DNA of 64,000 nucleotides, from positions 37,562 through 101,561 of the forward strand of contig CAVOKC010000005.1 of assembly GCA_963696465.1 (NCBI GenBank), written 5' to 3'. Position 1 is the first letter of the stretch; each line of letters starts with the position of its first letter. A program made the position numbers and the translations under genes. Positions 1 through 64,000 of this stretch are shown one piece after another. Origin of the DNA: an uncultured Gammaproteobacteria bacterium. GTDB taxonomy: Bacteria; Pseudomonadota; Gammaproteobacteria; Thiohalobacterales; Thiohalobacteraceae. The notes under the pieces were generated by a model. The model searched no databases. It worked only from the letters and a program-made list of their open reading frames with translations, and was not told the DNA's origin.

Positions 1-224
1 AAGGTCGATTTGCCTGCGGAAAATGTCCCCAGCACGGAGACCAGCGGCCACCAGGTTACCTGTGTCGCGTAGGATTCATCGCGCCCCAGCAGGCCGGTCA
101 CATAACCGATGCTGGACAACTTGCGGAACCCATCGACCGCCTGTACCAGAAGCGGATTTTCAGTTCGCAGGTGCTGTTCGAGGCTGGTGAGGCGTTTGCG
201 TACACTCTTGTTTGGGACAGCCAT
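1..224 (-). CDS. dynamin-family GTPase, N-terminal fragment (continues past left edge)
   Basis: Reverse-strand ATG at 224 preceded by a GGGAGGAGA Shine-Dalgarno. Translation is MAVPNKSVRKRLTSLEQHLRTENPLLVQAVDGFRKLSSIGYVTGLLGRDESYATQVTWWPLVSVLGTFSAGKST. It ends in a GxxxxGKS/T P-loop in a context typical of bacterial dynamin-like proteins. Absent from the ORF track because it runs off the window. Confidence 0.5.
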   Translation of the reverse strand, partial: MAVPNKSVRKRLTSLEQHLRTENPLLVQAVDGFRKLSSIGYVTGLLGRDESYATQVTWWPLVSVLGTFSAGKST

Positions 225-271
225 CTTGTTATCTCCTCCCTCGCTCGCACGGGCACTGTGATCCCGCGCGA

Positions 272-835
272 TTACCGGGGCACAAAGGCATTCATAAAGC
301 GCATCGGTCCAGTCGAATTCTGGATATTTCGCCCCATCGACCGCGTGTCGTAGCGCATCTCGTAGACGGACACTGACATCATTGCCATAGACTGCGTCAT
401 ACGCTCTATGCTCCCAGACATGGCGATGATCGCCACAGTGTCCTTTTCGATGTCTAAGCTCAGCTTGTCGATATTCCCCGAAATATGATGCACATCCTTG
501 GTCACGTTACTGAAATCTCCAGATACCAGATGCATGTCGTCTGATATCACCACCATCCGCTCTGCTATCACGTCCATACGACCCGTGATGTGACTGACGC
601 TGGCGGTCAACTGGTAAATCAGATAGAACCCATAAGCCGCCAGCAGCACGAAGGCGAACAGCAACGGGTAGACGACCAGCTCCCAACGCCGCGCACTCGC
701 TTCAAAGCTGCGCGCGAATTTATCCATAACAGCGGACATGCCCTGAAACTGATCAGCACCACCACGCCCCTCTTCCGCTGGCCCGCATATTTCAGCAGGT
801 GCCTTATCCTCATCGACGGACGTTGGTTTCGTCAT
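272..835 (-). CDS. membrane-anchored hypothetical protein with heptad-like repeats
   Basis: 187-aa ORF with one central TM segment (WELVVYPLLFAFVLLAAYGFYLIYQL). This is followed by repeated ~12-aa units (ITGRMDVIAERM / VSGDFSNVTKDV / ISGNIDKLSLDI / MSGSIERMTQSM). It lies 47 nt upstream of the GTPase gene on the same strand. No family recognised. Confidence 0.5.
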   Translation of the reverse strand: MTKPTSVDEDKAPAEICGPAEEGRGGADQFQGMSAVMDKFARSFEASARRWELVVYPLLFAFVLLAAYGFYLIYQLTASVSHITGRMDVIAERMVVISDDMHLVSGDFSNVTKDVHHISGNIDKLSLDIEKDTVAIIAMSGSIERMTQSMAMMSVSVYEMRYDTRSMGRNIQNSTGPMRFMNAFVPR

Positions 836-903
836 GTCTTATACAACCTTCTATATAAGATTTCTGGAACTGTGTGCGTCCGTGCGCGTAAGCTCCGCCG
901 GCT

Positions 904-1239
904 TTATCCGCCGCCGACGACACCGGACTCCCAAATAGCCCGTGCGCGCGCTGGATCCAACCCGTCCAGGATCATGAGCATATGTCGCGCATGCGGAATG
1001 TCCCCGCTCTTGGCGAGACGCACCACCGCACCCGCATAGGCTTCAGCCGCTTCGTTCCAGCGCCCCTGCATGTAGTAGAGATTACCAAGTTCACCGAGTG
1101 GCTCCGCGGCAGACGGATCATCTTTGGCAAGTTGCTGATAGAGTTGCTCTGACCGCGGAACATCCTGTGCCCAGAACGCGGCGCGCGCGGCATCCAACGA
1201 GGCGACGCTCTGCATAGCTGGCGCTGCACTGCGCTCCAC
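904..1239 (-). CDS. TPR-repeat protein
   Basis: 111-aa ORF with TPR-like helices (EQLYQQLAKDDPSAAEPLGELGNLYYMQGRWNEAAEAYAGAV). Confidence 0.5.
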   Translation of the reverse strand: MERSAAPAMQSVASLDAARAAFWAQDVPRSEQLYQQLAKDDPSAAEPLGELGNLYYMQGRWNEAAEAYAGAVVRLAKSGDIPHARHMLMILDGLDPARARAIWESGVVGGG

Positions 1240-1259
1240 ATCGGTGTTCGATTGGGGCT

Positions 1260-1649
1260 CTATAGCCGGAGGGGCCGCTGGCGCGGGAGACTGAGCGCCG
1301 CTGGCGCGGGTTCAGGTCTAAACTTCGGCTCGGCCGCGGGCGGCACGAAAGATTCAGATGACTCCTGGTATGGGTTCACTGGAGCCATCGCTGGCCCTGG
1401 TGCTGCCGGCATCTCGGTGACAGGTGCCGGCACGGCCATAACCGGGGGAGGCGCCGGCGTCGCAGTCACCGGCCGTTCTTCCTGGAGTCGTGGCATCTGC
1501 GCCGGTTGCTGTTCAGGTGCCGACGCAGTAAACCAGCTTGGAAATAGCTCAGCACGGAAGTAATAGCCGATGCCAGCCAGTATTGCCAAGGCTATCAGCA
1601 GACTCTTGCTGAGGATGCTTTGTACGATTTTCATGTCGGCAGTCTCCAA
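1260..1649 (-). CDS. membrane-anchored Pro/Ala-rich protein
   Basis: 129-aa ORF with an N-terminal TM anchor (ILSKSLLIALAILAGIGYYF) and a Pro/Ala-rich tail. It is 12 nt downstream of the preceding gene. Confidence 0.45.
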   Translation of the reverse strand: METADMKIVQSILSKSLLIALAILAGIGYYFRAELFPSWFTASAPEQQPAQMPRLQEERPVTATPAPPPVMAVPAPVTEMPAAPGPAMAPVNPYQESSESFVPPAAEPKFRPEPAPAALSLPRQRPLRL

Positions 1650-1661
1650 TGTATTACGTGA

Positions 1662-2469
1662 CTAATGCTGCGCTGGCGTCTTGATTGTTTTGTCAATCGC
1701 CTCGCTGCGTGATTGTGCGGGGATCTCCATACGCCGGTATCCGGCGGGTATGACGAAGAGCCCTTCAGGCTGCACTGCAATCTTGATATTTCGCAATTCT
1801 CGATAACTTCCATCTGTCAGCTCCTCGCGAATTGCAATCTGGAGCTGTGGGTCGTACCACTGAAAGATCCGTTGTGTTTTACCGTCAGGCTGCACGATAG
1901 ATTGCTCCCAGTGCTCGACTTGACGCCCGTTCAGCCACGGTTGGCCACGCAGTTGTAATTCGGTAACGCTGCCGTCAGGCCAGAGTTGTCGCAGTGGCAT
2001 CTGCCGTTGCGGATCGATCCAGTGCAGACTGCGTTCAGTCTTGCCATCGCGCTGTGCGGTCATTTCCCATTTATCGACCGTGATGCCGGACATTGTTTGC
2101 TGTCCGAGATGTTGGCAATGCAGTTCGCGTGCACCCAGACATGGGTTGGTGTCTTCACCCGCACGCCGCTGTACTTTGTTCAGCTCCGCCGCCGCGCCGC
2201 TTTCGATATACGCACGCTGTTGTGGTATCAGGAGGATTGTGCGTCCATGCCCCCAATCCACAATCTCAGCCACCGGCTGCCCTTCCACCAGGTACTCCAT
2301 GCGCACACGCTCGTGACCGACATACATATGCGCCATGCGCATCCGCTCGTCAGAACGAGGTTTGCACTGTCTCGGCGGAAAACTCCATCGCCGGCCCTTG
2401 CGCATGAGGTGCCGTTGCAATCAACGACAACACCATGGCCAGACCAACGGAGGAACGTTTATACGCCAT
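1662..2469 (-). pseudogene. periplasmic LolA-fold/DUF4412-like protein (frameshifted as assembled)
   Basis: ORF 1662..2420 has no signal peptide. An ATG at 2469 in another frame encodes MAYKRSSVGLAMVLSLIATAPHAQG (a Sec signal) and stops after ~40 codons, so one indel near 2350-2400 would join the two. The body (WIDPQRQMPLRQLWPDGS, FQWYDPQLQIAIREELTDGSY) looks like a periplasmic beta-protein. Family assignment is from memory only. Confidence 0.4.
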
Positions 2470-2568
2470 TACCTCTGCCTTACGGATGTCGCCCAACCCC
2501 TGTTGAGCGACACGCTGAGATTAACGAGCGAGACCCGCAGCCTATCTGCGGGCCCCTGCTCGATGTCA

Positions 2569-3101
2569 CTACCGGTTGCCAGCCGGACCCTGCTGCGGCA
2601 CCTGCTGCGGCGCAGCTTGCGGAGGCTGCCCACCATAGCCACCACCGGGATAACCATAGGCGGGCGGTGCACCATAGCCATAGCCACCACCGGGATAACC
2701 ATAGGCGGGCGGTGCACCATAGCCATAGCCCGGACCACCGTAGCCAGGCCCGGACCACCGTAGCCATAACCCGGACCACCGTAACCATAACCCGGGCCAC
2801 CGTAATAGCCGGGACCGTAGCCATAGCCACGACCACCGCCGTATCTGTTATCACCGTAGTAACGATTATTGCCACGACCATAGCCACGACCGCTGCTGCG
2901 ACCGCTTCCGCTAAAGCCCATGTTAAAATCACCGTCGCCGAACATATCGCCAGCGCCGCTGCCGTCACCATAACCATCGTTGTAACTATCGCCCCAACCG
3001 TCACCGTCGTCCCCCCATCCCCATGCCTGGACAGACGAGAGTGGAAGCGCCGTGAGGCTCGCGATGGCCGCTATCAACATTGTCTTTTTGAGTGATGTCA
3101 T
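2569..3101 (-). pseudogene. secreted Gly/Tyr-rich low-complexity protein (one frame break as assembled)
   Basis: Reverse ATG at 3101 gives the signal peptide MTSLKKTMLIAAIASLTALPLSSVQA. An acidic WGWGDDGDGWGD stretch follows, then GYGYGGPGY repeats. The frame breaks near 2745-2750. The alternate frame continues GYGYGAPPAYGYPGG x2 ... QQGPAGNR to a TAG at 2569-2571. Confidence 0.6.
2641..2730. repeat. perfect 45-bp tandem duplication inside the Gly/Tyr-rich gene
   Basis: accaccgggataaccataggcgggcggtgcaccatagccatagcc occurs twice back to back (2641-2685 and 2686-2730). Each copy encodes GYGYGAPPAYGYPGG. Confidence 0.9.
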
Positions 3102-3294
3102 TGCTTGATCCTCTGATCTAATTGAATTTGACCGACACAACAATCGTGTCACCTTCGCCCTCGGTTGTGCCTCGTAACAGTGAGCGGAGGGAAAGCACTC
3201 ACTGTTGGCTGATTCCTATGCGCCTTCGCGATCCATGCCGAACCTCGAAGCGCTTGTTACACCTTCATCTCGATGACTAAACCTCAGGCCATTT

Positions 3295-4190
3295 TCAGCG
3301 GATGATCGGCCATGCCGCGCCCGGATAAGCACCAAACGGCATTCCTCCCCAACCACCCGGCCACGCGCCGGTGCCTGGATACCCTCCACCGAAGCCGCCT
3401 GGCCAACCACCCGGATACTGGCTTGGGTATTGGCCCGGGTATGGCTGGTACTGGCCCGGATACGCGCCGGCAACAGCACCGCCGTAATACGGCGTATTCG
3501 GTACTGGTCGCTGACTGCTACCGTAAACTTGGTCATACGGTGTCACCACGGGCGGTGATGTAGCAGTGGCACGCGTTTCGCCCTCAAGTGGGCGGTAGCG
3601 CCCAGCCGTCGTGTTACCTCCTTGAGCAGCCGAACCCAAAGGTTGGCTGGTAGCCCAACTGTTCGCGTAATGATCTCGCCGTTCCTGCACGAGCCAAGGG
3701 TTGTCGCTCTGACTCGGGGCTGGCACCGGTGTCGCCGCGCCATACTGCGGGGCTGTTTGCGAATACACCTGTGGTTGCTGATATGTCTGTGGCTGCGAAT
3801 ACACCTGTGGTTGCTGATATGTCTGTGGCTGCTGATACGTCTGGGCTGCTGATACGTCTGTGGCTGCTGATACACCTGCGGCTGCTGATACACCTGTGGC
3901 TGCTGATACACCTGCGGCTGCTGGTACACCTGCGGCTGCTGGTACATCTGCGGCTGCTGTGGCGCACCCCAAGGTGCCTGTTGTTGGATGCCCTGCACAT
4001 ACCCCGGCATGGGGTATGTGCCTATTGGCAGCGTTGGCTGCTGTTGCCCCGTTATCACCTGTGCCGGAGCGGCGCCATTGCCATCGCCGCAGCCACTGAT
4101 CATCAGCACCAAGCCCACCGCTGCTAAGCGGCCGCACACAACACTGCGATTGCACTGCAGGGTTTGTGTCAGTGGCACAGACATGCGCAT
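3295..4190 (-). pseudogene. lipoprotein with QQPQ(V/T)Y tandem repeats and a Gly/Pro/Tyr-rich C-terminus (one frame break)
   Basis: ORF 3543..4190 starts MRMSVPLTQ...AAVGLVLMISGC (lipobox ISGC) and runs into (QQPQVY)n. ORF 3295..4329 carries the continuation ...YQQPQTYQQPQVYSQ...YPGQYQPYPGQYPSQYPGGWPGGFGGGYPGTGAWPGGWGG. The switch coincides with a 17-nt unit (gtctgggctg instead of gtctgtggctg, ~3843) in an otherwise 18-nt periodic array. Confidence 0.6.
3761..3960. repeat. 18-bp periodic coding repeat array (QQPQVY/QQPQTY), including a perfect 36-bp duplication
   Basis: gaatacacctgtggttgctgatatgtctgtggctgc occurs at 3761-3796 and again at 3797-3832. It is followed by about nine further ctgatacacctg(c/t)ggctg-type units. 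Confidence 0.85.
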
Positions 4191-5276: not shown

Positions 5277-8200
5277 TTAATTCATCGCCGTCTTTGGCGT
5301 TTCTTCCTGCAGCTCGGCGAACTTATGTGGATGGAAATGTTTCTCCGCGCTGATGCAACCAAGCGGAATCACCAACATTGTGAACAGCGTGGCGAAACCG
5401 GTACCGAACAACACGCTCGCGGCCATGCCTTGGAAAATCGGGTCAGAGAGAATGGTCGAGGCACCCGCGATGTTGGTAAGCGAGGTGATCAGGATAGGAC
5501 GCAGACGTGTGCGGCCCGCGTTGATCGCAGCTTCGCGGATCGGTGTACCGGCCTCGACTTCGATCTTGACGAATTCGACGAGCAGAATCGAGTTGCGCAC
5601 AATGATGCCGGCCATGGCGATGAAGCCAATCATCGACGTTGCGGTGAATTGCGCACCTATAATCAGATGTCCGGGAATAATACCGATCAGCGTCAGCGGA
5701 ATGGGCGCCATGATCAGTCCCGCAAGTGTGTAGTTGCGGAACTCGAGGACGATCAGACCGTAGATCAGTACCAGCGCGGCCATGAACGCAAGACCCATGT
5801 CGCGGAAGGTTTCGTAGGTCACGGTCCATTCACCGGTCCATTCGAAGCCACTCTTTTGATCGGTGTCCGGCGGACCAATCAGCCCCGCAGGCATGCCGGT
5901 TATCTTCACGCCATCAGGCGTGGTGTAGTTTTCCAGGAGATCCTCAACGCCATACATACCGTAGATGGGGGCGCCAAGAACGCCTTCCATCTCACCGGTA
6001 ACGTATTCCATCGGCCGCAAGTCGACATGGAAGATGTAAGGATCTTCCGGTACCTGGACGAAATTACCCAATTCACCCAAAGGGATGGTTTGACCATCGG
6101 CGGTCGCAATTGGCAGATTATACAAACGACCCAGCTGTGAGCGAACGGCGAGCGGGGCCTGCAAAACGATGTAGGTCGGCTCCAAGGGAGCAGCACGCTT
6201 CACGTCACCCAGCTTGTGCCCTCCCATCGCCATGGACAGATTGCGGTTGATCGCGTCTGCGTTAATTCCACGCCGAGTGGCTTTCTCCATGTCAATTTCG
6301 AAACGCCAATAGCTGAAGGGGTCTGCCATATAGTTGTCGACATCGACCAGATTTTCGACCTGCTCGAACATGGCGGTCATATCGCGAGCCACTTGGCGTC
6401 GGGTCGCTGCATCCGGGCCGTAGATTTCGGCGGCAACGGTCTGCAATACCGGCGGGCCCGGAGGCATTTCCACAATCTGGATCTTGGCGCCAAGCTGTTT
6501 GGCATACGGCGTGAGCAGTTTGCGCGCGGCCACCGAAAGCTCATGGCTGCTACGCTCACGATCATCCTTATCCGTGAGCATTACCTGTATATCCGCATGC
6601 CAAGGCCGCTGACGTAAATAGTAATGACGCACCAGACCATTGAAATTGTACGGCGAGGCCGTGCCGACATAACTCTGCAATGAAGTCACTTCAGGGATGG
6701 TCTGCAATTGTGCTGCGAGCACTTGCGCAACATTCGCCGTGGTCGGCAGCGCAGTCCCTTCCGGCATATTGATGAGGACATTGAATTCTGGCTTGTTATC
6801 GAACGGCAACATCTTCACCGCAACGGTTTTGGTGTAGAACAGAACGCAGGAGGCTGCCGTGAGCGCAATGACACCGACCAGAAAGATCACACCCAGCGTC
6901 CGATGCTCAATCAGTGGTCTGATGATGGGGTCGTAGTAGCGGCTGATTATTCTGTGTGTGGCCTTCTCGCGTTCTTCAGATTTTCGGAATGCCTCGACGT
7001 TGGCGGGCCGCACTCGCATGGTGAACCAAGGTGTGAATATAAAAGCGGCGACCAGCGAAAAAAACATCGCGCATGCGCCGAGCACCGGTATAGGCCGCAT
7101 ATACGGCCCCATCAAACCACTGACAAAACCCATCGGCAGCAGTGCGGAGATAATGGTCAAGGTGGCAAGAATGGTCGGATTGCCAACCTCGCGCACCGCA
7201 TCGATTGCAACAGTCAGTGTGGTTTTGCCTGCCAACATCCAGCGACGGAAGATGTTTTCCACCACCACCGTCGCGTCGTCAACCAAGATACCGATGGAAA
7301 AGATCAGCGCGAACAGACTGACGCGGTCAATGGTGTATTCAAGCGCCCAGGCGGATGCAATGGTGATCAGAATCACCACCGGGATCACGGTGATCACCAC
7401 GAAGGCCGCACGGAATCCCAGTCCAATCATGCACAGGATAGACACGGCAACGGCCGCCTCGAACAATGCCGTCAGCAATTCGTTGACTTTTGTATTAGCA
7501 GTCTTGCCGTAATCGCGGGTGACGCTGACATGCACATTGTCAGGGATGAGATGGCCTTTGAGCTGTTCCAGCTTGGCGAGAATGTCATTGGCAACAGTAA
7601 CGCCGTTAGAGCCCTCTTTCTTCGCCAGCGCGATCGTTACCGCGGGGAATCCCTGTGACGCATACTTCAGCTGCTCGTCGCCCGCCGGGCCGGAGTAGTA
7701 GGTCACCATGCGCTCGGGTTCGGCAGGCCCGTGAAACACCGACGCCACATCGCGCAGGTAGACGGGGCTTCCCTGGTAGCTACCGATTACCAGTCGGGAA
7801 AGATCCTGGGCGTTGCGCAGAAAGGCGCCGCTGTACACCGAAAAACTGGTGTTACTGGATTCGACTGACCCGACTGGCATCTCGGAATTAGCCGAACTGA
7901 TTGTTTGTGCCAGTTGATCCAGGGTGACGCCATACCCGGTAAGGCGTTCCGGCTGTATCTCGACACGAATCTGCTCTTCACGTCCGCCAACCACGAAACC
8001 CTGACCGGTGTTCGGGATTTCCTGTAAACGCTGCAGCACATCCACGCCCAGGGTGCGCAATGCGGCATCATCAACGGATTCTGACCACATAGTCAGCGTG
8101 ACCACGGGTACATCGTCAATACCCTTTGGTTTCACCAGCGGCATCGAGACGCCGGGCGGAATCTTGTCCAGATTGGATTGCAGTTTGTCATGGACCTTCA

Positions 8201-8672
8201 CAATCGAAGGACCCAGCGGTTCACCCACAATAAAGCGAACTGTCACCATGGCCTGACCACGTTCAGTCATGGAGTACACATGCCGAACACCGGGAATGCC
8301 GCTCATGATGCGTTCGAGAGGCTCAGTGACCAGACTTGCAACCTGCTCTGAAGATGCGCCCGGGTACTGGACGAAGATGTCCACCATCGGCACTGAAATC
8401 TGCGGATCTTCCTGGCGCGGCGTAAAGATGAGACCCATCAGACCAATGGCCAGTGCCGCGAAAAACAGCAGTGGCGTGACTGGAGAGTCGATAAAGACAC
8501 AGGCAATCTTGCCGGCGATGCCAAGTGAGCGCGTGCGCTTCAACTCTTCGACATCGTCCGGTAGTTCATCAACGTGAGTGTGCAGCGTTTGGACCGGTTC
8601 CTGAACCGAATCCTGAACTACGGGTTCATGCTCCCGCGGTTGCTCTGTGTTATTGCCGTTGTCTTCAGCCAT
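5277..8672 (-). CDS. RND efflux permease (AcrB/AcrD/AcrF superfamily), intact
   Basis: Uninterrupted 1131-aa ORF with the typical RND layout (TM1, large periplasmic loop, TM2-7, second loop, TM8-12). Conserved-looking stretches include AIDAVREVGNPTILATLTIISALLPMGFVSGLMGPYMRPIPV and GIIVRNSILLVEFV. It has an unusual ~50-aa acidic N-terminal extension. Confidence 0.9.
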   Translation of the reverse strand: MAEDNGNNTEQPREHEPVVQDSVQEPVQTLHTHVDELPDDVEELKRTRSLGIAGKIACVFIDSPVTPLLFFAALAIGLMGLIFTPRQEDPQISVPMVDIFVQYPGASSEQVASLVTEPLERIMSGIPGVRHVYSMTERGQAMVTVRFIVGEPLGPSIVKVHDKLQSNLDKIPPGVSMPLVKPKGIDDVPVVTLTMWSESVDDAALRTLGVDVLQRLQEIPNTGQGFVVGGREEQIRVEIQPERLTGYGVTLDQLAQTISSANSEMPVGSVESSNTSFSVYSGAFLRNAQDLSRLVIGSYQGSPVYLRDVASVFHGPAEPERMVTYYSGPAGDEQLKYASQGFPAVTIALAKKEGSNGVTVANDILAKLEQLKGHLIPDNVHVSVTRDYGKTANTKVNELLTALFEAAVAVSILCMIGLGFRAAFVVITVIPVVILITIASAWALEYTIDRVSLFALIFSIGILVDDATVVVENIFRRWMLAGKTTLTVAIDAVREVGNPTILATLTIISALLPMGFVSGLMGPYMRPIPVLGACAMFFSLVAAFIFTPWFTMRVRPANVEAFRKSEEREKATHRIISRYYDPIIRPLIEHRTLGVIFLVGVIALTAASCVLFYTKTVAVKMLPFDNKPEFNVLINMPEGTALPTTANVAQVLAAQLQTIPEVTSLQSYVGTASPYNFNGLVRHYYLRQRPWHADIQVMLTDKDDRERSSHELSVAARKLLTPYAKQLGAKIQIVEMPPGPPVLQTVAAEIYGPDAATRRQVARDMTAMFEQVENLVDVDNYMADPFSYWRFEIDMEKATRRGINADAINRNLSMAMGGHKLGDVKRAAPLEPTYIVLQAPLAVRSQLGRLYNLPIATADGQTIPLGELGNFVQVPEDPYIFHVDLRPMEYVTGEMEGVLGAPIYGMYGVEDLLENYTTPDGVKITGMPAGLIGPPDTDQKSGFEWTGEWTVTYETFRDMGLAFMAALVLIYGLIVLEFRNYTLAGLIMAPIPLTLIGIIPGHLIIGAQFTATSMIGFIAMAGIIVRNSILLVEFVKIEVEAGTPIREAAINAGRTRLRPILITSLTNIAGASTILSDPIFQGMAASVLFGTGFATLFTMLVIPLGCISAEKHFHPHKFAELQEETPKTAMN

Positions 8673-8693
8673 GTCGATGCAGCGCCTGAGTAA

Positions 8694-9893
8694 TCAGTTC
8701 GAATCGGTCTGTTGATTAGGGTTTTGCTTCGACCAGCCGGACGCTGTGGACGGTGGCTGGGCAAAGATCCGCTCGCCTACCATCAAACCAGAGAGCACTG
8801 AAACCTGCTGGCCAGCGACATATTCGCCCAACCGGATCAGGCGTAATTGCGGCTGATTATTTTCGTCCAGTACATAGACTGCGGGTAATGCGCCGCGCCA
8901 TAGGACAGCGGAGTCTGGAATAACCGGCACTACGGTTGTGGGTGCGGAACTGTCCGGCAACATGACTTCCGCGTACATGCCAGGCCCGCCTGGCACCCCC
9001 TCAGGCAGATCGAATTTGACGGTGACCGTGTGACGAACCTCATCCGCAGAAGGGAAGATCTGCGCCACGCGAGCTTCTACGCGAGTATTGCCGACATCAA
9101 GCCGTGCCGGCACCAGCATGCCCTTGCTGAGACTCGGCATAAGCCTGGATGGCACATCAACACGCACTTGTAGATAGGTCGTATCTGCATACTCCAACAA
9201 CTGCATGCCTGGCTGAACCGTGTCACCGACCTCGATGACCTTCTTGACGATCACGCCATCGAAGGGCGCGAAAGACCGCGCGTCGCGCAACCGTGCATCA
9301 ATCTGATCAATCTGTGAACGTGCGGTAAGTTCGCCACTCTGGGCCTGACTCAGTCGCGAACCGTAACTGTAAAGATCCGCTTGGCGATCTACATAGCGAT
9401 CACCGCCAGCGTTGCCCGGCATCGCATTCGAGAATGGCTGAGTGAACATCTGATCGAACATGGATGGCATGCCCATACCACCGGAGCGATACAGGCTTTT
9501 TCCCTGGGGCGAGATGAGTTCGCGCGAGTACTGCATCTGCGCATTGCCGATCTCCGCCTGTGCATTGCCAAGTTGCGCCAACGCCGCCCGACGCTGCGCC
9601 AGCAGATCGTCGTCATCAATGGCCACCAGAATATCCTGGGCCTTGAAGCGATCCCCTTCGGTACCGGCTATGAATTCGATCCGTCCGGCTATCTGCGCCG
9701 TTAGCGTCACTTGCTTATAGGCAACCACCGAACCACCAATTGTTACCGAAGCACCGGTCTGCGCTGGCTGTACAACAATGACAGCCGACGTATTTACTGC
9801 TGCAGCGGGCGCGCTGATACTCGGCTGTGCCTGACTTGAGGTACAAAACACAGCTGCGATCCCAGCCAGAATTATTTGTGTCGTTTTATTCAT
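8694..9893 (-). CDS. RND periplasmic adaptor (membrane fusion protein, HlyD_D23-like)
   Basis: 399-aa ORF with signal peptide MNKTTQIILAGIAAVFCTSSQA. It contains a lipoyl/alpha-hairpin/beta-barrel pattern (GRIEFIAGTEGDRFKAQDILVAIDDDDLLAQRRAALAQL ... APFDGVIVKKVIEVGDTVQPG). It is 21 nt upstream of the RND permease. Confidence 0.85.
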   Translation of the reverse strand: MNKTTQIILAGIAAVFCTSSQAQPSISAPAAAVNTSAVIVVQPAQTGASVTIGGSVVAYKQVTLTAQIAGRIEFIAGTEGDRFKAQDILVAIDDDDLLAQRRAALAQLGNAQAEIGNAQMQYSRELISPQGKSLYRSGGMGMPSMFDQMFTQPFSNAMPGNAGGDRYVDRQADLYSYGSRLSQAQSGELTARSQIDQIDARLRDARSFAPFDGVIVKKVIEVGDTVQPGMQLLEYADTTYLQVRVDVPSRLMPSLSKGMLVPARLDVGNTRVEARVAQIFPSADEVRHTVTVKFDLPEGVPGGPGMYAEVMLPDSSAPTTVVPVIPDSAVLWRGALPAVYVLDENNQPQLRLIRLGEYVAGQQVSVLSGLMVGERIFAQPPSTASGWSKQNPNQQTDSN

Positions 9894-10182
9894 TTCTACG
9901 CACTCTTCCTAATCTGACTGGATCAACTAGGTAACCCAGCCGGCCCAGAAAAAAATCGGATCTGATCACCTCACCGCAAACAGGCTGATGCAGGTGTACA
10001 GCCATGCCTTCATCGTGCTTAAAAAGCTAGACGGATTGCGTACACAGAGAAAAACGTAATTTGACGATGCCTGAGTTGTAGCGCACACGACACCGCTGCA
10101 ATGCTTGAGCGGGATTGAGCGGTATCTACGACTGGTATGCATGCCACCTAGAGTGCTCCCCACGTACGGCTGATTCGTTATG

Positions 10183-10204
10183 TGCGTTCTGTCAAGAGAA
10201 CGCA
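10183..10204 (-). promoter_or_regulatory. 8-bp-stem inverted repeat just downstream of the sigma-54 promoter (leader hairpin or operator)
   Basis: TGCGTTCT-gtcaag-AGAACGCA lies ~8-30 nt downstream of the predicted start point of the minus-strand transcript. Confidence 0.3.
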
Positions 10205-10222
10205 TAATTTGCTAATTTCAAT

Positions 10223-10238
10223 TGCAGTCTCCATGCCA
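10223..10238 (-). promoter_or_regulatory. sigma-54 (-24/-12) promoter facing the RND operon
   Basis: The minus strand reads CCTGGCATGGAGACTGCAAT. The -24 GG and -12 GC have canonical spacing, and it matches YTGGCACGrNNNTTGCW at all but two weakly conserved positions. It sits ~330 nt upstream of the adaptor ATG (9893), and a sigma-54 activator gene is divergent from it. Confidence 0.6.
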
Positions 10239-10362
10239 GGCTATAACTGACTGTTATTCATATGTTTTTATCATCGTCAAGGCATTGTCATGCAACACTA
10301 ATCCACACGATGTTTCTGTATTAGCTTTATGATTATGCGTAGGTTTAACATTTGGGCATTGC

Positions 10363-10399
10363 GTTGCACTGCCTATGCAACAGGTGCATCAGTTGCAAC
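10363..10399. promoter_or_regulatory. candidate enhancer (UAS) sites: GTTGCA-N7-TGCAAC palindrome plus an adjacent GTTGCAAC
   Basis: GTTGCActgcctaTGCAAC (10363-10381) and gTGCAtcagTTGCAAC (10384-10399) lie 125-175 bp upstream of the -24 element. A further TGCAAC half-site is at 10291-10296. The position is typical for bEBP binding sites. Confidence 0.4.
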
Positions 10400-11995: not shown

Positions 11996-12104
11996 TTAAA
12001 TATAATCAGTTAGTTATAATATTTTTATGGCAAACAACTATTGATTAGTAATTTCTAATGTACTAAAATACTGTTCAACAGAATTGAGCAGGGTCACATA
12101 TATT

Positions 12105-12212: not shown

Positions 12213-12272
12213 CCTAAAGTACATCCTAAAAGTACATAAAGTACTTTAGGGATTCGCCAAGCACTGCGGCCG

Positions 12273-52796: not shown

Positions 52797-55096
52797 TCAG
52801 GCCATGGTTTCCGTTTTAGTGCGTCCCACCCAGGTCAGGATCGTCTCCAGCGCCCGATCGAGGAACGGTTTATTTAGCATCGGCAGGAGGCGTGCATCTC
52901 CGGAGCACATCATGCGCGCGAGATCGAGCCAGTTGAATTCCGCCACCTTCACGCCCATCGCATCGACAAACATGTAGTTCGACGAAATCTTGCTATACCA
53001 GGCCAGTTTCAGACGCCGCTGACGGGTATCTTCAGTCGCGGCGAACTCGAACCAGGTATCGAAATCCAATCCGCCCAACAGATCGACCATCTCCTGCATT
53101 TCATCCGACAGCGTCACCTCCTCCTCAGAAGCTGGGGCGGGAATCGGCGGAACATCCGGTGCCGGCATCGCGACATCCGGAACAAGCACGGGCTTGGCCA
53201 GCGCCAGATCCTGCCAGTCGCAGATCTGCGCAAATATCCGGTCATTGTCGTGGCGCCCATAGGCCTGTAATTCATCCAGGCCCGCGCGCAGATCGGCGCG
53301 CAATTTAGGCAGGGCATCGTGGAGACGGTCACGTTCGGCCTGCTCTGTATGCAGCCCCATGCTCCAGGCCAGATCCCAGGCCAGCTTTGCAGCCAGTACC
53401 CACGCAGGGCTCATTTCAGCATCGTGTTCACGCAGCAGGATGAACGTGAGTTTTTCCGCCCATACCTGTCGCATAAAGGCCTGTGCATCCGCCGCCAAGT
53501 GCCTCATGTACAGGCAAGCGCCGATTTCGTTATTGGCCCGGTTACGCGCAATCTGTAGCCGCGCTTGACCGTCGGCGGCCTCCACCGTGCGATGTTCGAT
53601 CACCTGCGCCTTCTGTTCGACATCGCGCAGATGCGCTGAAAAATCGGCCAGCAGTTCGTCGAATAGGCTTAGATCATCTTTGAAGTCACGCAGGATGCGT
53701 TCGACCACCGCGCGCATGCCGGGAAAGATGCCGCGCTCCAGATTTTCTTCCGTCACCCATTTAGAACCGGCATCCACCATCACATCCAGAAGACGCCGGC
53801 ATGGATGATTTTTTTCTGTAAATAATTGCCGATCGAGAATCGCCACCTTGAGGAAGGGTGTATGCAGCCGGCTCAGCAGCGCCTTTGCGGCATTCGGTAA
53901 GCGCTCGTCCTGTAGCATGTATTCGAACAACATGCCGACCAGATCGATGAGATCCGCATCCGCGCCAGCCACTTTGCGGCGGTCGACGCCGCCGTACAGG
54001 CGTTGCCGTTCCTCCGCAAACGTCGTTCTGATTTTCCCCAGCAGATCCTTGTCAGTACCGATATTATCGATGACCTCGCTGTGGAAACGTGCGGAGGATT
54101 CGGTATCGCTGTATTCGTGCTGGATATTATGGATAGTGCCCAGAATGGTCGCCCGCGAGGTGGCCGCAACGACATCGCTGATCACATCACCCGAGGCTGA
54201 TCCAACGGTTCCAGGCGCATAGGTACCACTACCACCGCGACCACGCGCCATCATTTCGAGAATTGCCTGAAAGGCCTCCTCGCCGACCGACTGCGCCATA
54301 GCCGTTCCAGCCGCCTTCGTCGTATCCGCGCCTTTCGGCCCCGGGGCCGGACCTGTTGCCGGCGTCACCCGTCGGGGATCGTGCTGCTTGCGGATTTCAT
54401 ATTTGAGGTTTGGCAGAACCCCGGCATCGACCAGGCGCCGGTTGTATTCGTCGTAATCCCGGCAAGCTCGCGCATTACATAACGATCGAACACGGCATAG
54501 ATCACCATGCGGGTCTTGCCGTCCATGTCCAGCAGATTGAAGGCACTGCGCGCGGCCTCGGCCACCAGCACCGGCCCACCGGGCAGAGCCGCCTCGGGCA
54601 CGCGGGAACCACCATTGATCACAGCGAGCCGTTGATTGAGACCATACAGATGCTCGCTGTAATTGGCGTTGGCCTTGGCGATCATATTCTGCACCGGCAA
54701 GGCCGCTTCGACTTCGAGCTTATCGACCAAGCTTAATTTCGGTATCGTCTTGCCGTCCGGATTTTGCGCTGCGGACCTCGCGCTGACGTTACCGTCGATG
54801 AAATCCCGGAAGCCGGCGTCGACGGATTTATGAAAGGCCCGTTCGATGTCGTCGTGCTTGCGTTTAAAATCCTGCATGGCCTCGAAGAACTTGCTCTGCA
54901 TGGCATTGCTTTCAGCCTTGCTGGCGAACTCCAGCAGCGCAATGTCGCCGTTCTCCAGCAGTTCCTGGAACAACGGCACCAGATGACTGCGCACCATCTC
55001 GCGGCAGCCCTGCATAAGTTCCCTAAAGCGCGGCGGGAGCGTTCCAGTTCGAGAGTAATCGTGTGAATTCATAACCGTCCTGTGCACCGCAGACAC
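52797..55096 (-). pseudogene. DUF1631 family protein (~760 aa), one frame break near 54460
   Basis: ORFs 54365..55096 and 52797..54368 are collinear parts of one protein. The frame of the downstream ORF, read upstream of its Met, continues with ...DEYNRRLVDAGVLPNLKYEIRKQHDP-like sequence. The family call is from memory of Pseudomonas/Xanthomonas DUF1631 proteins. Confidence 0.55.
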
Positions 55097-55236
55097 CTGT
55101 ATAGTATCAACTATCGGCGGTTGGGTAGTGAATGATCGGCTGTCGGACCAGCAACTTTAAAGTACCGCAAATCGTTCGGCGTCGCGACCGTTTCAGACGG
55201 GAACGGGTTCTGTAGGAGCGGTACATGCCTGCAGGC

Positions 55237-58151
<2,915 letters not shown>

Positions 58152-58154
58152 ATC

Positions 58155-61100
58155 GCTTCGCTCTGCGCCTTACGAGCGACCAGTTGCACGGCCTCGTCGA
58201 CATCCACCGCCACCAGCCGCGACACACCCGCTTCATGCATGGTCACGCCGGTGAGCTGGTTGGCCATTTCCATGGTGGTCTTGTTGTGGGTGATGTAGAT
58301 GAACTGCACGCGCTCGGACATTTCGCGCACCAGCGCGCAGAAGCGGCCGACGTTGGCGTCGTCGAGCGGCGCGTCGACCTCGTCGAGCATGCAGAACGGC
58401 GAGGGATTGAGTTCGAAGATCGCGAACACCAGCGCCACGGCGGTCAGCGCCTTCTCGCCGCCGGACAGCAGAGTGAATATTGCTGATGCGTTTGCCGGGC
58501 GGCCGCGCCATGATGGCGATACCGGTATCGAGCAGGTCTTCGCCGATCAGTTCCAGATGCGCCTGACCGCCGCCGAACAGGCGCGGGAACATGCGACTGC
58601 AAACCGTTATTGACCTTGTCGAAGGTTTCCTGGAAACGCGTGCGGGTCTCGCGATCGATTTTGCGGATGGCGTTTTCCAGCGTCTCCAGCGCCTCGGTCA
58701 GATCGGCATTCTGCGCGTCCAGATAGGTCTTGCGCTGACTTTGCTCGGCGAATTCGTCGATGGCGGCGAGATTGATCGGACCCAGGCGCTGAATGCGCGC
58801 GGCGATGCGTTCCATATTTTCGTGCCAGAGCGGTCTATCCGCCTCCGGCGGCAGTGCGGCCAGCAAAGTCTGCAACTCGATCTCGGTCTCGGCGAGTTGT
58901 TCCAGCAAGCGTCTGGCGGCGGACCTTGATCTCCTGCCAGGCGAGCCGTTCTTGCTCCAGCGCGCTGCGCAGTTCCTGGGCGAAAACGTTTCGTGATTGT
59001 GACGTTCCTGCTCGTGGTCGACGCAGCGCCTCTTCGATCTCCTCGCGATGGTGACGGCGCCGTGGTCAGTTCGGCTTCGACCTGCGATACGCTTGGCGAG
59101 CCAGCGTTTCCAGTTCCTGTGCGAGTGCGGCGAGCGGTACTCGCGCGTCGGCGACGGCGGCGCGCAAATGCACGCTGCGTTCATTCAAGGCGACCTGCTG
59201 TCCTGCATACGTTTCAGGTTCTGTTCCGGACCGGCACGCGCCGCGCGTTGCGATTCGATGCGCAAGGCCAGTTCATGCGCGCTGTTGCGGCAGTTGCGGG
59301 CCTGTTCGCGTGCCTCATCGAGGCGCGTGACGCAGTTCGTCGCGCTGGGCATTGAGCGGCGCGCGTTCCTGGGTGTTCGCCTCCATCAGGTCGAGCGCCT
59401 GCTGCAGGCGTTCGTGCGCGGTGCGCTGTTCATCCTGATCGTGGCTGATCTGCGCGCCGATTTCCTCGCAGTTCCTGGCGCACGCGGACTCGCGCGCCTC
59501 GCCTGTGCCAGACGGGTGCGCCGCGCGCCGAGCTGGGCTTGTGATTCGGCATGCTGGCGGTGCGCGATATTGAGTTCGAGTTGAATGGCATCGCGCTGTT
59601 GCTCCAGCTCGACCAATTGCGCGCGGCCCTGTGCTTCGTTCTTCCAGTGCGCCGACGCGCTGCCTCAATGTATCAGTTGCGCCTGCAACTCGGCGATTTC
59701 TTTTTCCCGCGCCAGCACGCCCTGGCGTCTCATCCGCATCGCGCGCCACGCGCAACCAGTTGCGACCCAGCCAGACGCCGTCGCGGGTGATGACGGATTC
59801 GTGCGCGTCCAATTGGCCGCGCAGTTTCAGCGCGTCCTGATCAGGCTGTCGGCGCAGTAGACGCCGCCGAGCAATGCACCGAGCGAGCGAGGATTGCGAC
59901 TTGCACAGCATGGTGACAGCGGTGTGCAGTGGCCGGCGACGGCGGCTGGTGGCGCGAGCGATCGAACAGCGAGAGCGAACCGTGCTGCAGACCCGCTCAG
60001 CACACCCGCCACGGCATCGATGCCATCCACACACACGGCTTCCAGATAATCGCCGAGCACGGTTTCGAGGCGCGTTCCCATTCCGGCGCGATGCGGACCT
60101 GTTGCGCCAGGCGCGGCGCACTCGCCGAGTCCCTGACCGTTCAGCCAATCGCTGACCGCGCCGGCATTGCGACCCAATGCGGCCTGCTGCAAGGCCTGCA
60201 GTGAAACCAGACGGCCGTGCGTGTCCTGCTATTCGGCCGCGCGCGCTAGTAGTTCGACGGGTGATGCTGCTGGTACTGTTCGCGGCGTGCGGTGAGTTGT
60301 TCGGCAGGATTCCTGCACCAGAATTGAGTTGCTGGAAGGCCTGCTGCGGCCGTGGCTTCCGGTTGCTCGACCTGCGGCGATCTCGTCGAACAGGCTGGCT
60401 GGATGCGATGCGTGGCGCGCTCTTCTTCCAGACGCGTGCGGCGCTGGTCGAGTTGGCCGAGGTGACGATCGAACTGATCGATGCGCGCGCGCTCGACTTC
60501 GCTGATGCGGGTCGGTTCGGCGGCGCGCTGGTTGAATTCTTCCCACGCGGACTGCCAGTCGTGCATGGACTGCTCGGCGCTGTTCAGACGGGCGGTGGCC
60601 TCGCTTCTCGGCCACGCGGGCCTGTAGCCCATGCCGGGCGTTTCGTCCAGGGTCTCGTGCCATTTCGGTGAGTGCGTTGCTGTCATGCTCGATGTGCGCT
60701 GTACATCCTGTTGAGGCCTGTTCGGCCTGGGCCAGATCCTGCTGCTGGCGTGCGCGGGTGTCCTTGGCGTGCTGGATGCTCTGTTCGAGGCGGGCGATGT
60801 CGGCGCCCACGCCATAGAAGCGGCCCTGCACAACATTGAAGGCATCGTTGGCTTCGGTGTGCGCGTCGCGGGCCTTCTCGATGGCGGCCTCCATGCGCGC
60901 GCTGATCGGCGATCACGCCTTCCAGGCGCGTCTCCGCTCGCTGATGGCGCGTTCCTGGCGTGCCGCCGGCTTCTTCCAGTGCGCGCAGGCGCAGCGCCAG
61001 CAGTTCGGCCTTGACCTGACGCTCTTCCTGTTTCAGTTCTTTGTACTTCTCGGCGGCCTTGCGCTTGGCGCTGCAGATGCGTCCAGCTGCTTCTCGATTT

Positions 61101-61700
61101 CATCGCGCAGATCGTTGAGGCGCGCCATGTTCTCGCGTGTGCTGTGGATACGGCTCTCGGTTTCCTTGCGGCGTTCTTTGTATTTGGAGATGCCGGCGGC
61201 CTCTTCCAGGAACACGCGCAGTTCTTCCGGGCTTGGCCTCGATCAGACGCGAGATCATGCCCTGCTCGATGATGGCATAGCTGCGCGGACCAAGGCCGGT
61301 GCCGAGGAAGATGTCGGTGATGTCACGGCGGCGGCAGCGCGTGCCGTTGAGGAAGTACACCGACTGGCCGTCACGCGATACCTGGCGCTTGATGGAAATT
61401 TCGGCGTAGCTGGCGTACTGGCCGCCCAGGCCTGCCGTCGCTGTTGTCGAACACCAGTTCAATGGTGGCATGACCGACCGGTTTGCGGGCGCTGGAGCCG
61501 TTGAAGATGACGTCGGCCATGGACTCGCCGCGCAGCTGCTTGGCCGAGCTTTCGCCCATGACCCAGCGTACGGCGTCGATGACGTTGGATTTGCCGCAAC
61601 CGTTCGGCCCGACGATGCCGATCAGATTGCTCGGCATGTGGATGGTGGTGGGGTCGACGAACGATTTGAAGCCGGCCAGTTTGATTTTAGTCAGGCGCAT
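58155..61700 (-). pseudogene. smc: chromosome segregation protein SMC, more than 10 frame breaks (3' end approximate)
   Basis: ATG 61700 gives [50 protein letters not shown]. Coiled-coil fragments lie in many frames. The C-terminal head is [77 protein letters not shown]. Confidence 0.85.
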
Positions 61701-61927
61701 GGGCCGGAAAAATACAAGACTCAACCCGTAATGTACAAGGATTGACAGACCCGCCTCGCTCTGCGCCAGCGCTTGCCCGGCATGCGCCCGATAAGCGCCC
61801 GTCAAATCACCGGACGCGAGATCGCAGCCGGCCCGGAGGAGGCGCCGCAAACGACTTGTTTTTGCTTGTATCCGAGCGGGTATCCCGCCTTGTATCAGGG
61901 GGTGCGCCTCCTGTATCTTTGCGCGCC

Positions 61928-62317
61928 ATGAGCACCCAACCCAGCAAAGACCTCGAGACCTTCGCCAACCCGCAGCCGGGTCGCGATTACACCATCCGCA
62001 TCCGTATGCCGGAGTTCACCTGCCTGTGCCCGAAAACCGGCCAGCCGGACTTCGCCACGCTGCATTTGGAATACATTCCGGAGACGCTGTGCGTGGAGCT
62101 GAAATCACTCAAGCTCTACATCTGGTCGTTCCGCGACGAAGGCGCATTCCATGAGGACGTGACCAACCGCATCCTGGACGATCTGGTCGCCGCCACCGCT
62201 CCGCGCTTCATGCGCCTGACGGCCGAATTCATGGTCCGCGGCGGCATCTACACCACCGTCGTCGCCGAACACCGCGCCGCGACCTGGCAGCCGGCCATCA
62301 AGGTCGAACTGCCGTAA
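61928..62317 (+). CDS. queF: NADPH-dependent 7-cyano-7-deazaguanine reductase (type I QueF)
   Basis: From ATG 61928: [76 protein letters not shown]. The catalytic Cys and the QueF motif E(L)KS.KLY are present. Confidence 0.85.
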
Positions 62318-62333
62318 CTCCGCTCAGGCCCAC

Positions 62334-63641
62334 TTGGCCGTGACCTCACAGTTTCTCGGTATCGACGTCGGCACCTCCGGGGTACGCGCCTGCCTGATCG
62401 ACGCCGACGCGCGACTTCTCGATAGCGTCCATACCCCGCTTCCACTGCCGCGGCATGATGGCGCCCACTGCGAACAAGACCCGCAACTCTGGTGGCAGGC
62501 GCTCACGCACGTCCTTGATGAACTCGCGGCCCACCGCGACCTGCACGCCGTGACGGCGATGGCCCTTGATGCTACCTCGTCCACGCTGCTCGCCTGCAAT
62601 GCGCAAGGCGAACCCTTAGCGCCGGCACTGATGTACAACGATCGCCGCGCCGTTGACGAAGCCGCGCGCATCGCCGCCATCGCCCCGCGCGCGAGCGGCG
62701 CGCACGGCGCAAGCAGCAGCCTGTCCAAGGCGCTGTGGTTTTCGGCGCAAGCGCAGACACGCGCGGCGCATGGGTTCCTGCATCAGGCCGATTGGCTGAG
62801 CGGCCGACTGCTCGGACGCTTCGGCCACAGCGATGAAAACAATGCGCTCAAACTCGGCTACGATCCGATTGAGCGTTGTTGGCCAGACTGGATCGGCCAA
62901 TTGGACATAGACGCCACGCAGCTACCGTCCGTGGTCCCACCCGGCACCGACCTCGGCGCGTTGCACACGACCTGGGCACAGCGTTGGGGTATGCCGCACG
63001 CACACCTCCTGGCCGGCACCACCGACAGCACCGCCGCCTTTCTCGCCACCGGCGCGGATCGCATCGGCCAAGCTGTCACCAGTTTGGGCAGCACGCTGGT
63101 ATTGAAAATATTCGCCGAACGCCCAGTATTCGCGCCGGAGTACGGCGTCTACAGTCATCGTCTCGGTGATCGTTGGTTGGTCGGCGGCGCCTCCAACAGC
63201 GGTGGCGCAGTGTTACGGCAATTCTTCAGCGATGCACAGTTGCGCGCACTGGAGACACAACTGCATCCACAGACGCCTACCGGGCTCGATTACTATCCGC
63301 TCCCAAGTTGTGGCGAACGTTTTCCGATCAACGACCCGACGCTAGCACCGCGCATGGAACCACGTCCGGCCGATGCCATACAGTTTCTGCAAGGTCTGCT
63401 GGAAGGCATCGCAGGTATCGAACAACGTGGTTATGAATTGCTGCACAGCCTCGGCGCGCCTTACCCCAGCGAGGTCATCAGCAGCGGCGGTGGTGCCGCC
63501 AATGCGCCCTGGCGGCAGATACGCGCACGGTTGCTCGGTATCCCCGTGCGTCTCGCGCAACACCAGGATGCGGCATATGGTGCGGCACTCCTGGCACGTC
63601 AAGGAATCCAAACGCAATCACGGGAGCCCAGAACCACATGA
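62334..63641 (+). CDS. FGGY-family carbohydrate kinase
   Basis: 435-aa ORF with the N-terminal FLGIDVGTSGVRACLID motif and C-terminal GGGAANAPWRQIRARLLG. Substrate not assignable. Confidence 0.75.
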   Translation: MAVTSQFLGIDVGTSGVRACLIDADARLLDSVHTPLPLPRHDGAHCEQDPQLWWQALTHVLDELAAHRDLHAVTAMALDATSSTLLACNAQGEPLAPALMYNDRRAVDEAARIAAIAPRASGAHGASSSLSKALWFSAQAQTRAAHGFLHQADWLSGRLLGRFGHSDENNALKLGYDPIERCWPDWIGQLDIDATQLPSVVPPGTDLGALHTTWAQRWGMPHAHLLAGTTDSTAAFLATGADRIGQAVTSLGSTLVLKIFAERPVFAPEYGVYSHRLGDRWLVGGASNSGGAVLRQFFSDAQLRALETQLHPQTPTGLDYYPLPSCGERFPINDPTLAPRMEPRPADAIQFLQGLLEGIAGIEQRGYELLHSLGAPYPSEVISSGGGAANAPWRQIRARLLGIPVRLAQHQDAAYGAALLARQGIQTQSREPRTT

Positions 63642-64000
63642 ACGAAATCCTCAAAGGCTTTGGCTATGTGCTGGAGGGCCTGCGCCTGATCCGCGTAGCC
63701 GGATTGCGACGCTTTGTATTGGTGCCATTGTTGGTGAATACCGTGCTGTTCACCGGCCTGATGTTCGCCGCCGTCAGTGGTTTTGAACGACTACTCGACT
63801 ATCTGCTCGGCTTCCTGCCGGAGTGGCTGCATTGGCTGCAATATCTGCTGTGGCCGTTGTTTGCCGTCAGCGTGCTGTTGATTCTGGTCTACAGCTTCAC
63901 CCTGATAGCCAACCTCATCGCCGCGCCGTTCAATGGCATCCTCGCCGAGGCGGTTGAAAAACACCTCACCGGTCAAGCGCTGGAACAAACCGGCAATTGG
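63638..64000 (+). CDS. cysZ: sulfate transporter CysZ (5' part; runs off right edge)
   Basis: ATG 63638 overlaps the preceding stop (ATGA). The product is MNEILKGFGYVLEGLRLIRVAGLRRFVLVPLLVNTVLFTGLMF...FLPEWLHWLQYLLWPLFAVSVLLILVYSFTLIANLIAAPFNGILAEAVEKHLTG, collinear with CysZ. Confidence 0.75.
   Translation, partial: MNEILKGFGYVLEGLRLIRVAGLRRFVLVPLLVNTVLFTGLMFAAVSGFERLLDYLLGFLPEWLHWLQYLLWPLFAVSVLLILVYSFTLIANLIAAPFNGILAEAVEKHLTGQALEQTGNW

Follow-up and report, generated by a model that had tools for sequence, protein, structure and literature searches.

We analyzed a stretch of 64,000 nucleotides (nt) from an uncultured gammaproteobacterium (positions 37,562 to 101,561 of contig CAVOKC010000005.1, assembly GCA_963696465.1; the whole stretch is called the window below) in which many protein genes are interrupted by shifts of the reading frame. 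These frame breaks are insertion and deletion (indel) errors of the consensus or the assembly and are neither mutations nor a sign of genome decay, a reading to which we assign a probability of about 0.93. The breaks are almost certainly sequencing or assembly errors because no related sequence has the same one-letter indels. That the window suffers from assembly errors rather than from decay had already been proposed from the sequence alone (the original prediction), and the proposal is borne out by breaks that consist of indels only, by low ratios of nonsynonymous to synonymous substitution rates (dN/dS), by break sites private to the window, by separate error patches in the relatives, by an indel direction that is specific to each block and by the involvement of indispensable genes.

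Frame breaks in the window

Frame shifts were called with a validated frameshift-aware protein-to-DNA dynamic programme against intact relatives; a GC3 frame plot was too noisy for frame tracing at the guanine-plus-cytosine (GC) content of the window, which is about 60%. Intact orthologues were found in L081 and L165 (94%), in the short-read assemblies L083 and L084 and in the contigs L166-L169. Both L081 and L165 come from the 547-kb contig_9974 of the ENA assembly ERZ25039597, where they adjoin, and L082 is the 17-kb contig_10646 of the same assembly, both names being Flye-style. With 92-96% nucleotide identity L081 and L165 are syntenic with the window from 22.4 to 56.3 kb. L083 and L084 are 75-86% identical, and L166-L169, which are megahit or JGI contigs, are 96-98% identical across 1-21.6 kb. 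For the cytochrome gene P0271 and P0274 served as references and for the histidine kinase P0281 and P0282. The smc gene was compared with P0241 (84%) and with six full-length Smc proteins from metagenome loci, whose identity of about 60% makes them suited to frame mapping and not to base-level polarity. Related populations are present in sediment, wetland and freshwater metagenomes, and GlcD has at most 78% identity to GTDB species representatives among the matches listed. The privacy of the breaks was checked by aligning the Logan contigs of four metagenomes (X1, X12, X25 and X26, at least 94-96% alike) and also L166-L169 to the window.

Frameshift-aware alignment revealed at least 88 frame breaks, spread over 23 of the roughly 44 genes assessed, in line with the predicted +1 and -1 breaks in about 25 genes. 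All genes that had been named as broken (serS, ligA, ftsK, smc, zipA, rarA, glcDEF and acrB) do contain breaks, and the predicted counts for the worst genes (8 or more in acrB, over 10 in smc and 6 or more in ftsK) were reached or surpassed. We find 12 breaks in acrB at the protein level and 20 at the DNA level compared with L081 (14 of -1, five of +1 and one of +2), 21-28 in smc, and 10 and 16 at the two levels in the C-terminal 653 codons of ftsK. The corresponding protein-level and DNA-level numbers are 8 and 15 (vs L081) for rarA and 1 and 4 for serS. At the protein level there are in addition seven breaks in a cytochrome c/PKD gene, six in the gene of the phosphoketolase XFP, three in the DUF190 gene and two each in glcF and the histidine kinase gene. 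One break each was found in the MFS, IclR, four-carbon-acid kinase, glcD, glcE, DUF1631, ligA, zipA and hydrolase genes and in each of four small genes at 0.9-4.2 kb.

Break sites in related populations

Short-read contigs from independent metagenomes (X1, X12, X25, X26, X2-X4 and the megahit contigs L166-L169), which stem from populations of 95-99% identity, span about 33 of the break sites. At all of them the contigs are unbroken, and no short-read contig supports the window state at the covered sites, which argues against real pseudogenes. The indel differences seen with the short-read contigs correspond in position and direction to breaks that the comparison with L081, with L165 or at the protein level had indicated. 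The contradicted sites include 1295 and 2354 in the small genes (by X12, X1 and L166), 19410 in the hydrolase gene (by X12, X26 and L168), 25660, 25806, 25814, 25981, 25989, 27092, 27241 and, within 28060-28109, 28060, 28081, 28085 and 28109 in acrB, 30529 and 32336 in the DUF190/rarA block (by X25 and X1), six sites in ftsK (33897, 33990, 34503, 34739, 35103 and 35162; by X1, X25 and X26), 48704 in glcF (by X1, X12 and X25), 56389 in ligA and 57798 and 57805 in zipA (by X26 and X1), and 61229 and 61433 in smc (by X25). The lesions are thus not shared within the lineage, as relatives at 94-99% identity lack the breaks of the window. In the clean left part of the window the coding differences to the relatives are in-frame indels of 3, 6 and 12 nt, as expected of real variation, and throughout 5277..14189 the coding indels relative to the 97% relatives L166-L169 are exclusively multiples of 3.

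The individual events that had been reconstructed from the sequence could be located precisely. In acrB, where a C had been thought to be missing at about 25660, one base is missing at 25660-25662, and this base is a C in X1 and X25, as guessed, and an A in L081. The predicted extra bases in the hydrolase gene (at about 19412) and in glcD (at about 46684) are an A at 19410 and a T at 46683. The compensating pair postulated for ftsK between 35100 and 35170 consists of a -1 at 35104 and a +1 at 35162 and is backed by L081 as well as by short-read contigs of X25 and X1.

As a reciprocal control we examined the relatives themselves. L081 and L165 are clean where the window is broken, with acrB, rarA, serS and ftsK intact. 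L165 has a hot patch of its own with 11 breaks in a 1.1-kb stretch of ligA (L165 20.3-21.4 kb), a gene with one break in the window, and it carries single breaks in XFP, glcF and DUF1631. In L082 there are 26 breaks in XFP, seven in the kinase gene and seven in DUF1631, with dense patches at 1-2000, 2082-3421 and 11355-13641. The breaks of L165 and L082 all lie in codons that differ from those of the window. One glcF break (codon 237-239) appeared to be shared between the window and L165. This candidate was rejected, as the window shows +1 at this place and L165 +7, and the short-read contigs have neither.

Substitutions, indel sizes and clustering

No internal nonsense substitution is present in the frame-corrected, well-aligned genes. 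Stop flags are limited to one small gene, five codons from its end, and to the poorly aligned coiled-coil of smc (references of 55% identity), where they vanish with the 84% reference P0241. Neutral decay with one indel per 10 substitutions should have left about 15 nonsense codons in the five broken genes that are syntenic with L081, and 0 were observed; the probability of finding none is about 4e-7 at this ratio and 0.012 even at 1:3. Nor is dN/dS raised: measured against L081 it ranges from 0.07 to 0.20 in the broken genes and from 0.12 to 0.25 in their intact neighbours, with similar dS. After frame correction the proteins of the window are 93-98% identical to those of the nearest relatives. 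Genes that are normally indispensable in bacteria are struck many times each, and serS, ligA and ftsK are among those affected.

The size of the indels is also informative. In the coding part of 22.4-35.6 kb there are 62 frame-shifting indels, of which 57 are of 1 nt (35 deletions and 22 insertions) and four of 2 nt; just one is larger (7 nt), and it sits in the divergent 3′ end of lolA. In-frame indels in this coding part number two only, both in acrA. Frame-shifting indels are therefore almost all of 1-2 nt and the broad deletion spectrum of pseudogenisation is absent.

The breaks are clustered, as predicted. Gaps between successive events of at most 25 nt make up 46% of all gaps compared with 12.6% under a Poisson distribution, the variance/mean ratio of breaks in 1-kb bins is 2.8, and 58 of the 88 events are confined to twelve 1-kb bins. 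Up to 20 hits in one gene with zero in its neighbours is not what pseudogenisation would be expected to produce. The hot patches lie at 17.3-18.2, 25.6-28.6, 30.4-32.4, 33.9-35.2, 41.6-43.2 and 58.4-61.7 kb. Although 1-nt deletions exceed 1-nt insertions 35:22 in the coding part of 22.4-35.6 kb, the direction is reversed in XFP and smc. By hot block the ratio of deletions to insertions is 6:1 (cytochrome), 14:6, 13:5, 7:9, 1:5 and 3:21 (smc), a heterogeneity that is highly significant (chi-square 26.7, 5 df, p 7e-5). A genome-wide mutational process should not change its direction bias from block to block. A block-specific bias is expected if the reads behind the patches, or the way in which they were polished, differ from one patch to the next.

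Genes and blocks along the window

The genes and blocks referred to above and below are as follows (aa, amino acids; ORF, open reading frame).

907..4184, minus strand: four small genes (243, 268, 171 and 284 aa in L166) with one frame-shifting difference each (-1 at 1295, +1 at 2354, a 20-nt duplication at 2728 and -1 at 3844)
5277..14189: clean block, GC 0.48-0.57, with the RND permease, MFP, two sigma-54 activators and tRNA-Val
5277-8672, minus strand: RND permease, 1131 aa, clean
8694-9893, minus strand: MFP, clean
10643-11995 and 12840-14189, plus strand: sigma-54 activators, clean
12364-12438: tRNA-Val, one in the window
15491..18302, minus strand: cytochrome c/PKD gene, 937 aa, seven breaks, 87% aa identity to Sulfuricaulis limicola P0271
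18924..19767, plus strand: alpha/beta hydrolase, extra A at 19410
19855..21471, minus strand: histidine kinase, 539 aa, pair of -1 at 20563 and +1 at 20516
22458..23679, minus strand: MFS transporter, +1 at 23383
24343..25569, plus strand: acrA-like adaptor, intact at GC 0.642, with only two 3-nt in-frame differences to L081
25581..28755, plus strand: acrB-like RND permease, hot block with a cluster at 27092-27155
28990..30269, minus strand: serS, -1 at 29377 and three 1-nt insertions at 29594-29603 that add up to one codon
30409..32633, minus strand: hot block of DUF190 (three of -1), crcB (clean) and rarA (15 events)
33652..35613, minus strand: C-terminal 653 codons of ftsK, hot block with a garbled patch at 34347-34397
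36182..40194, minus strand: clean block with a 492-aa ORF, a VWA protein (563 aa) and TPMT
40212..45050: IclR (+1 at 40747), XFP phosphoketolase (41083-43300; six breaks, +1 at 41617, 41693, 41899, 41945 and 43177 and -1 at 42772) and four-carbon-acid kinase (-1 at 44712)
45199..49202, plus strand: glcD (+1 at 46683, four codons ahead of the stop, ORF prolonged to 46764), glcE (-1 at 47032) and glcF (+1 near 48330-48334 and +1 at 48704)
49386..52757, minus strand: clean block, GC 0.53-0.56, with a LamG/Big/fn3 protein (478 aa), FKBP and PilZ
52800..58438, minus strand: DUF1631 (-1 at 54456), ligA (+1 at 56389-56392) and zipA (two 1-nt deletions at 57798 and 57805, counted as one at the protein level)
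58444..61700, minus strand: smc, the densest hot block, frame shifts mainly 1-nt insertions
62334..63641, plus strand: FGGY-family sugar kinase, a single intact 435-aa ORF, GC 0.638

The long ORFs that had been described as clean (the RND permease, both activators, the VWA gene and the LamG gene) are indeed free of breaks, and the same is true of MFP, acrA, the 492-aa ORF and the FGGY kinase. A further ORF of 598 aa at 15488-17284 looks clean as it forms the unbroken two-thirds of the 937-aa cytochrome c/PKD gene; the remaining third holds the seven breaks (six deletions and one insertion), all within the hot block at 17304-18152, and 15491-17284 has none. Likewise the ORFs at 19768-20502 and 20536-21471 are the 244-aa and 311-aa halves of one 539-aa histidine kinase.

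The 492-aa coiled-coil ORF (36182-37660, minus strand) adjoins the VWA gene, and its orthologue in L165 has 472 aa; the two sequences differ by a 1-nt indel at 36296 close to the 3′ end. Since the window and L165 disagree at this position, the seemingly clean ORF may have a wrong C-terminus.

Two of the small genes of unassigned function contain repeats, namely a 36-nt tandem repeat at 3758-3959 and a 20-nt direct duplication at 2728-2747. The event at 3844 lies within the tandem repeat, and the protein alignment places a +2 at 3869 instead. The copy number of these repeats varies between L166 and L167, and for this reason the frame differences associated with them may be genuine variation and not errors. 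Accordingly, the 20-nt and repeat-associated differences in the small genes could be real.

The kind of error

The original prediction had described the events as 1-nt changes in homopolymers of 2-3 nt, attributing them to error-prone long-read or homopolymer-sensitive sequencing with incomplete polishing. The homopolymer part of the prediction did not hold. Among the 57 coding 1-nt events 61% concern a base outside any run, 37% a run of 2 nt and 2% runs longer than that; in the background the shares are 60/32/8%. The homopolymer rule is hence rejected, and with it a homopolymer-sensitive type of sequencing is left unsupported. The deleted base was inferred from L081 and may differ in closer relatives, as the example of 25660 illustrates. 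The statistic for insertions is unaffected because this ambiguity concerns deletions: 15 of 22 inserted bases (68%) match neither neighbour. A Dam/GATC methylation motif was also rejected, as 9.7% of the events lie within 4 nt of GATC compared with 6.8% of the background, and no k-mer stands out in an enrichment analysis of the break sites.

We also computed the indel density against GC and homopolymer content, as had been proposed. The result is divided, with a correlation with GC on the kb scale and no enrichment in homopolymers. Break density correlates with GC across genes (rho 0.47) and across 1-kb bins (rho 0.54, p 5e-6), so the impression that the clean genes are the less GC-rich ones is correct on this scale. 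It fails for acrA, FGGY, TPMT, crcB and the clean part of the cytochrome gene, which are GC-rich yet unbroken, and it fails at the site level: local GC at the breaks within broken genes is 0.615 compared with a background of 0.629, and site-level GC was therefore rejected as the cause.

Taken together, the consensus would be good over most of the contig and kb-scale patches would be close to raw long-read quality, with approximately 0.5-1% random 1-nt insertions and deletions independent of homopolymers. Each indel in such a patch shifts the frame and gene callers therefore split one real gene into several fragments. The contig, which measures 123.7 kb (123,655 bp) and belongs to an Acidiferrobacteraceae-like gammaproteobacterium, probably stems from a long-read metagenome assembly, the platform being deduced from the error pattern. 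As context-free 1-nt indels in patches resemble near-raw long-read sequence, we infer very thin local depth and/or patchy polishing. Most likely the patchiness would be caused by thin and uneven read depth and/or by patchy polishing, in part depending on GC. In nanopore metagenome-assembled genomes indels are the main error and lead to an excess of pseudogenes that is larger at low coverage (PMC8103633), and tools for frameshift-aware repair of long-read assemblies exist (Kastor, PMC12007338).

Alternative explanations

A collapse of mixed strains might be the main source of the errors, either because reads of relatives with 89-98% identity cross-map to conserved genes or because a hybrid assembler fills tangles of the short-read graph with raw long reads. 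Several related populations occur together in every metagenome examined, the worst genes (acrB, rarA, ftsK, xfp and smc) belong to the conserved core and most clean ORFs are poorly conserved accessory genes, and substitutions are slightly more frequent close to indels, within 15 nt, than elsewhere (2.1 vs 1.5). By analogy, collapsed alleles give rise to apparent frameshifts in a eukaryote assembly (PMC8445201). However, the break counts per bin do not follow the depth of the related short-read contigs, taken as a proxy for cross-mapping (rho about 0.1, not significant, two regions). The highly conserved genes glcD, serS and ligA have just one to four events each, and the strain-specific cytochrome island, which is absent from X12, X1 and L168, holds a hot block. 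We therefore regard strain collapse as unlikely to be the main source. It would still be an artefact and differs only in the cause of the patchiness.

Considerably less likely still are systematic context-dependent errors at adequate depth, that is, miscalls at homopolymers or methylation motifs that survived incomplete polishing. Some events do occur in short runs (A to AA at 19410, T to TT at 46683, a T run at 33601 and the CC of X1 and X25 at 25660) and a few adjoin GATC. But the run lengths, the inserted bases, the GATC proximity and the k-mers given above all speak against such errors, which moreover should show up wherever such a context occurs along the contig and not in kb-scale blocks.

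A real, recent and massive pseudogenisation in a lineage undergoing degeneration (for example, an incipient symbiont or a mutator deficient in mismatch repair) would account for the presence of the breaks in the deposited sequence and for the roughly half of the assessed genes that are affected; given the lack of nonsense substitutions and relaxed selection, the hits in normally indispensable genes, the size, distribution and block-specific direction of the indels, the intact sites of the relatives, a GC content of about 60% and a self-similarity search of the window without expansion of insertion sequences (IS), it is hardly credible.

Four points weigh against our conclusion that the breaks are consensus errors. 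No indexed run contains the contig; the best shares of the window's 31-mers are 0.25, 0.56 and 0.21, and none of the runs is labelled NANOPORE. The contradicting short-read contigs come from related populations at 95-99% identity, which does not prove that they represent the same strain. The missing homopolymer bias is atypical for a well-covered nanopore or HiFi consensus, and the artefact account therefore needs very low local depth. Finally, the kb-scale correlation with GC has no mechanistic explanation. One could imagine that the indels are real and that a free-living member of the Acidiferrobacteraceae underwent an extreme burst of indels only (e.g., by loss of proofreading or mismatch repair), too recent for substitutions to accumulate, and survives through a second intact genome copy or through complementation at the population level. 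We consider this scenario most improbable.

Comparison with known systems

Gene fragmentation in long-read assemblies and metagenome-assembled genomes (Nanopore or PacBio continuous long reads, CLR) closely resembles what we observe. There, too, genes fall apart into neighbouring ORFs of different frame through 1-nt indels, too many pseudogenes are counted, and the severity is uneven among contigs and regions (L082 and L165 being likewise defective). In the window, correcting the frame recovers proteins with 93-98% identity to those of relatives. The window differs in lacking the homopolymer or methylation-motif bias usual for the residual errors of a well-covered nanopore or HiFi consensus, and in its kb-scale hot blocks, block-specific deletion/insertion bias and kb-scale GC correlation. 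Watson & Warr 2019 reportedly described indel-induced gene fragmentation in long-read assemblies, and proovframe is said to perform a frameshift-aware correction of such assemblies.

Reductive genome evolution leads to the accumulation of pseudogenes in Mycobacterium leprae, Sodalis and recently host-restricted bacteria, and as in the window many neighbouring genes are interrupted by frameshifts. In contrast, the window shows no nonsense mutations, relaxed selection, large deletions, IS expansion or AT drift, its indispensable genes are struck repeatedly, and no break is common to any related population.

Programmed ribosomal frameshifting and transcriptional slippage, as in prfB and dnaX, also change the frame by +1 or -1 within a functional gene. 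They depend on a single conserved slippery site common to the orthologues and are rejected here, since there are up to 20 sites per gene without a motif and the orthologues are unshifted.

Other features of the window

The multihaem cytochrome c/PKD gene of 937 aa lies on a segment (15.3-18.8 kb) that the 97% relatives L168, X12 and X1 lack; in them the 131-aa gene and the hydrolase gene adjoin. The protein has its 87% aa identity to Sulfuricaulis limicola (Acidiferrobacteraceae) BAV34682.1. The segment is a strain-specific insertion with an error hot block inside.

An element of approximately 170 nt occurs at 28791-28957 between acrB and serS and at 33462-33637 between lolA and ftsK; the two copies are mutually inverted and 86% identical. 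A further copy is found in L081 (19097-19260). The element ends in long inverted repeats, is predicted to fold stably (-65.6 kcal/mol, z -5.5) and has no match in Rfam. In sediment and wetland metagenomes its depth is hundreds-fold and many contigs fit both places of the window. It looks like a miniature inverted-repeat transposable element (MITE) or a REP-like (repetitive extragenic palindromic) element that is widespread in the lineage.

The two sigma-54 activators are paralogous (74% nucleotide identity over 380 nt) and lie on either side of tRNA-Val at 10.6-14.2 kb, where the GC content of the window is lowest (0.48-0.52). This tRNA marks a breakpoint of synteny: in L081 the MFS gene follows within 1 kb, the same gene lies 10 kb off in the window, and the genes upstream of the tRNA are wholly different in L081. 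The intergenic region at 12.1-12.65 kb has many small indels relative to L168 and L169, among them a +1/-1 pair in the tRNA (12389/12392), and these indels may be either errors or true variation. Within 40500-49300 some conserved part, perhaps the phosphoketolase or glcD gene, apparently resembles sequence of human-associated data.

Implications

In the hot blocks pseudogene calls, ORF boundaries and protein fragments derived from the contig are unreliable. Such fragments are already in public protein collections: a GlcD of 521 aa whose C-terminus is false, 598 aa of the 937-aa cytochrome and the 311-aa and 244-aa halves of the kinase. Deposited fragments of this kind can give rise to false protein families and bias estimates of completeness or of pseudogene content. 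The defect is common in this type of data, and the contigs of ERZ25039597 (L082 and L165) need equal caution. For the annotation of the contig a frameshift-aware translation or a re-polished sequence is advisable.

For the organism itself there is biologically nothing new. The value of the finding is to flag the contig, the deposited protein fragments and the public relatives, and the contig gives no ground for inferring genome reduction in this lineage.

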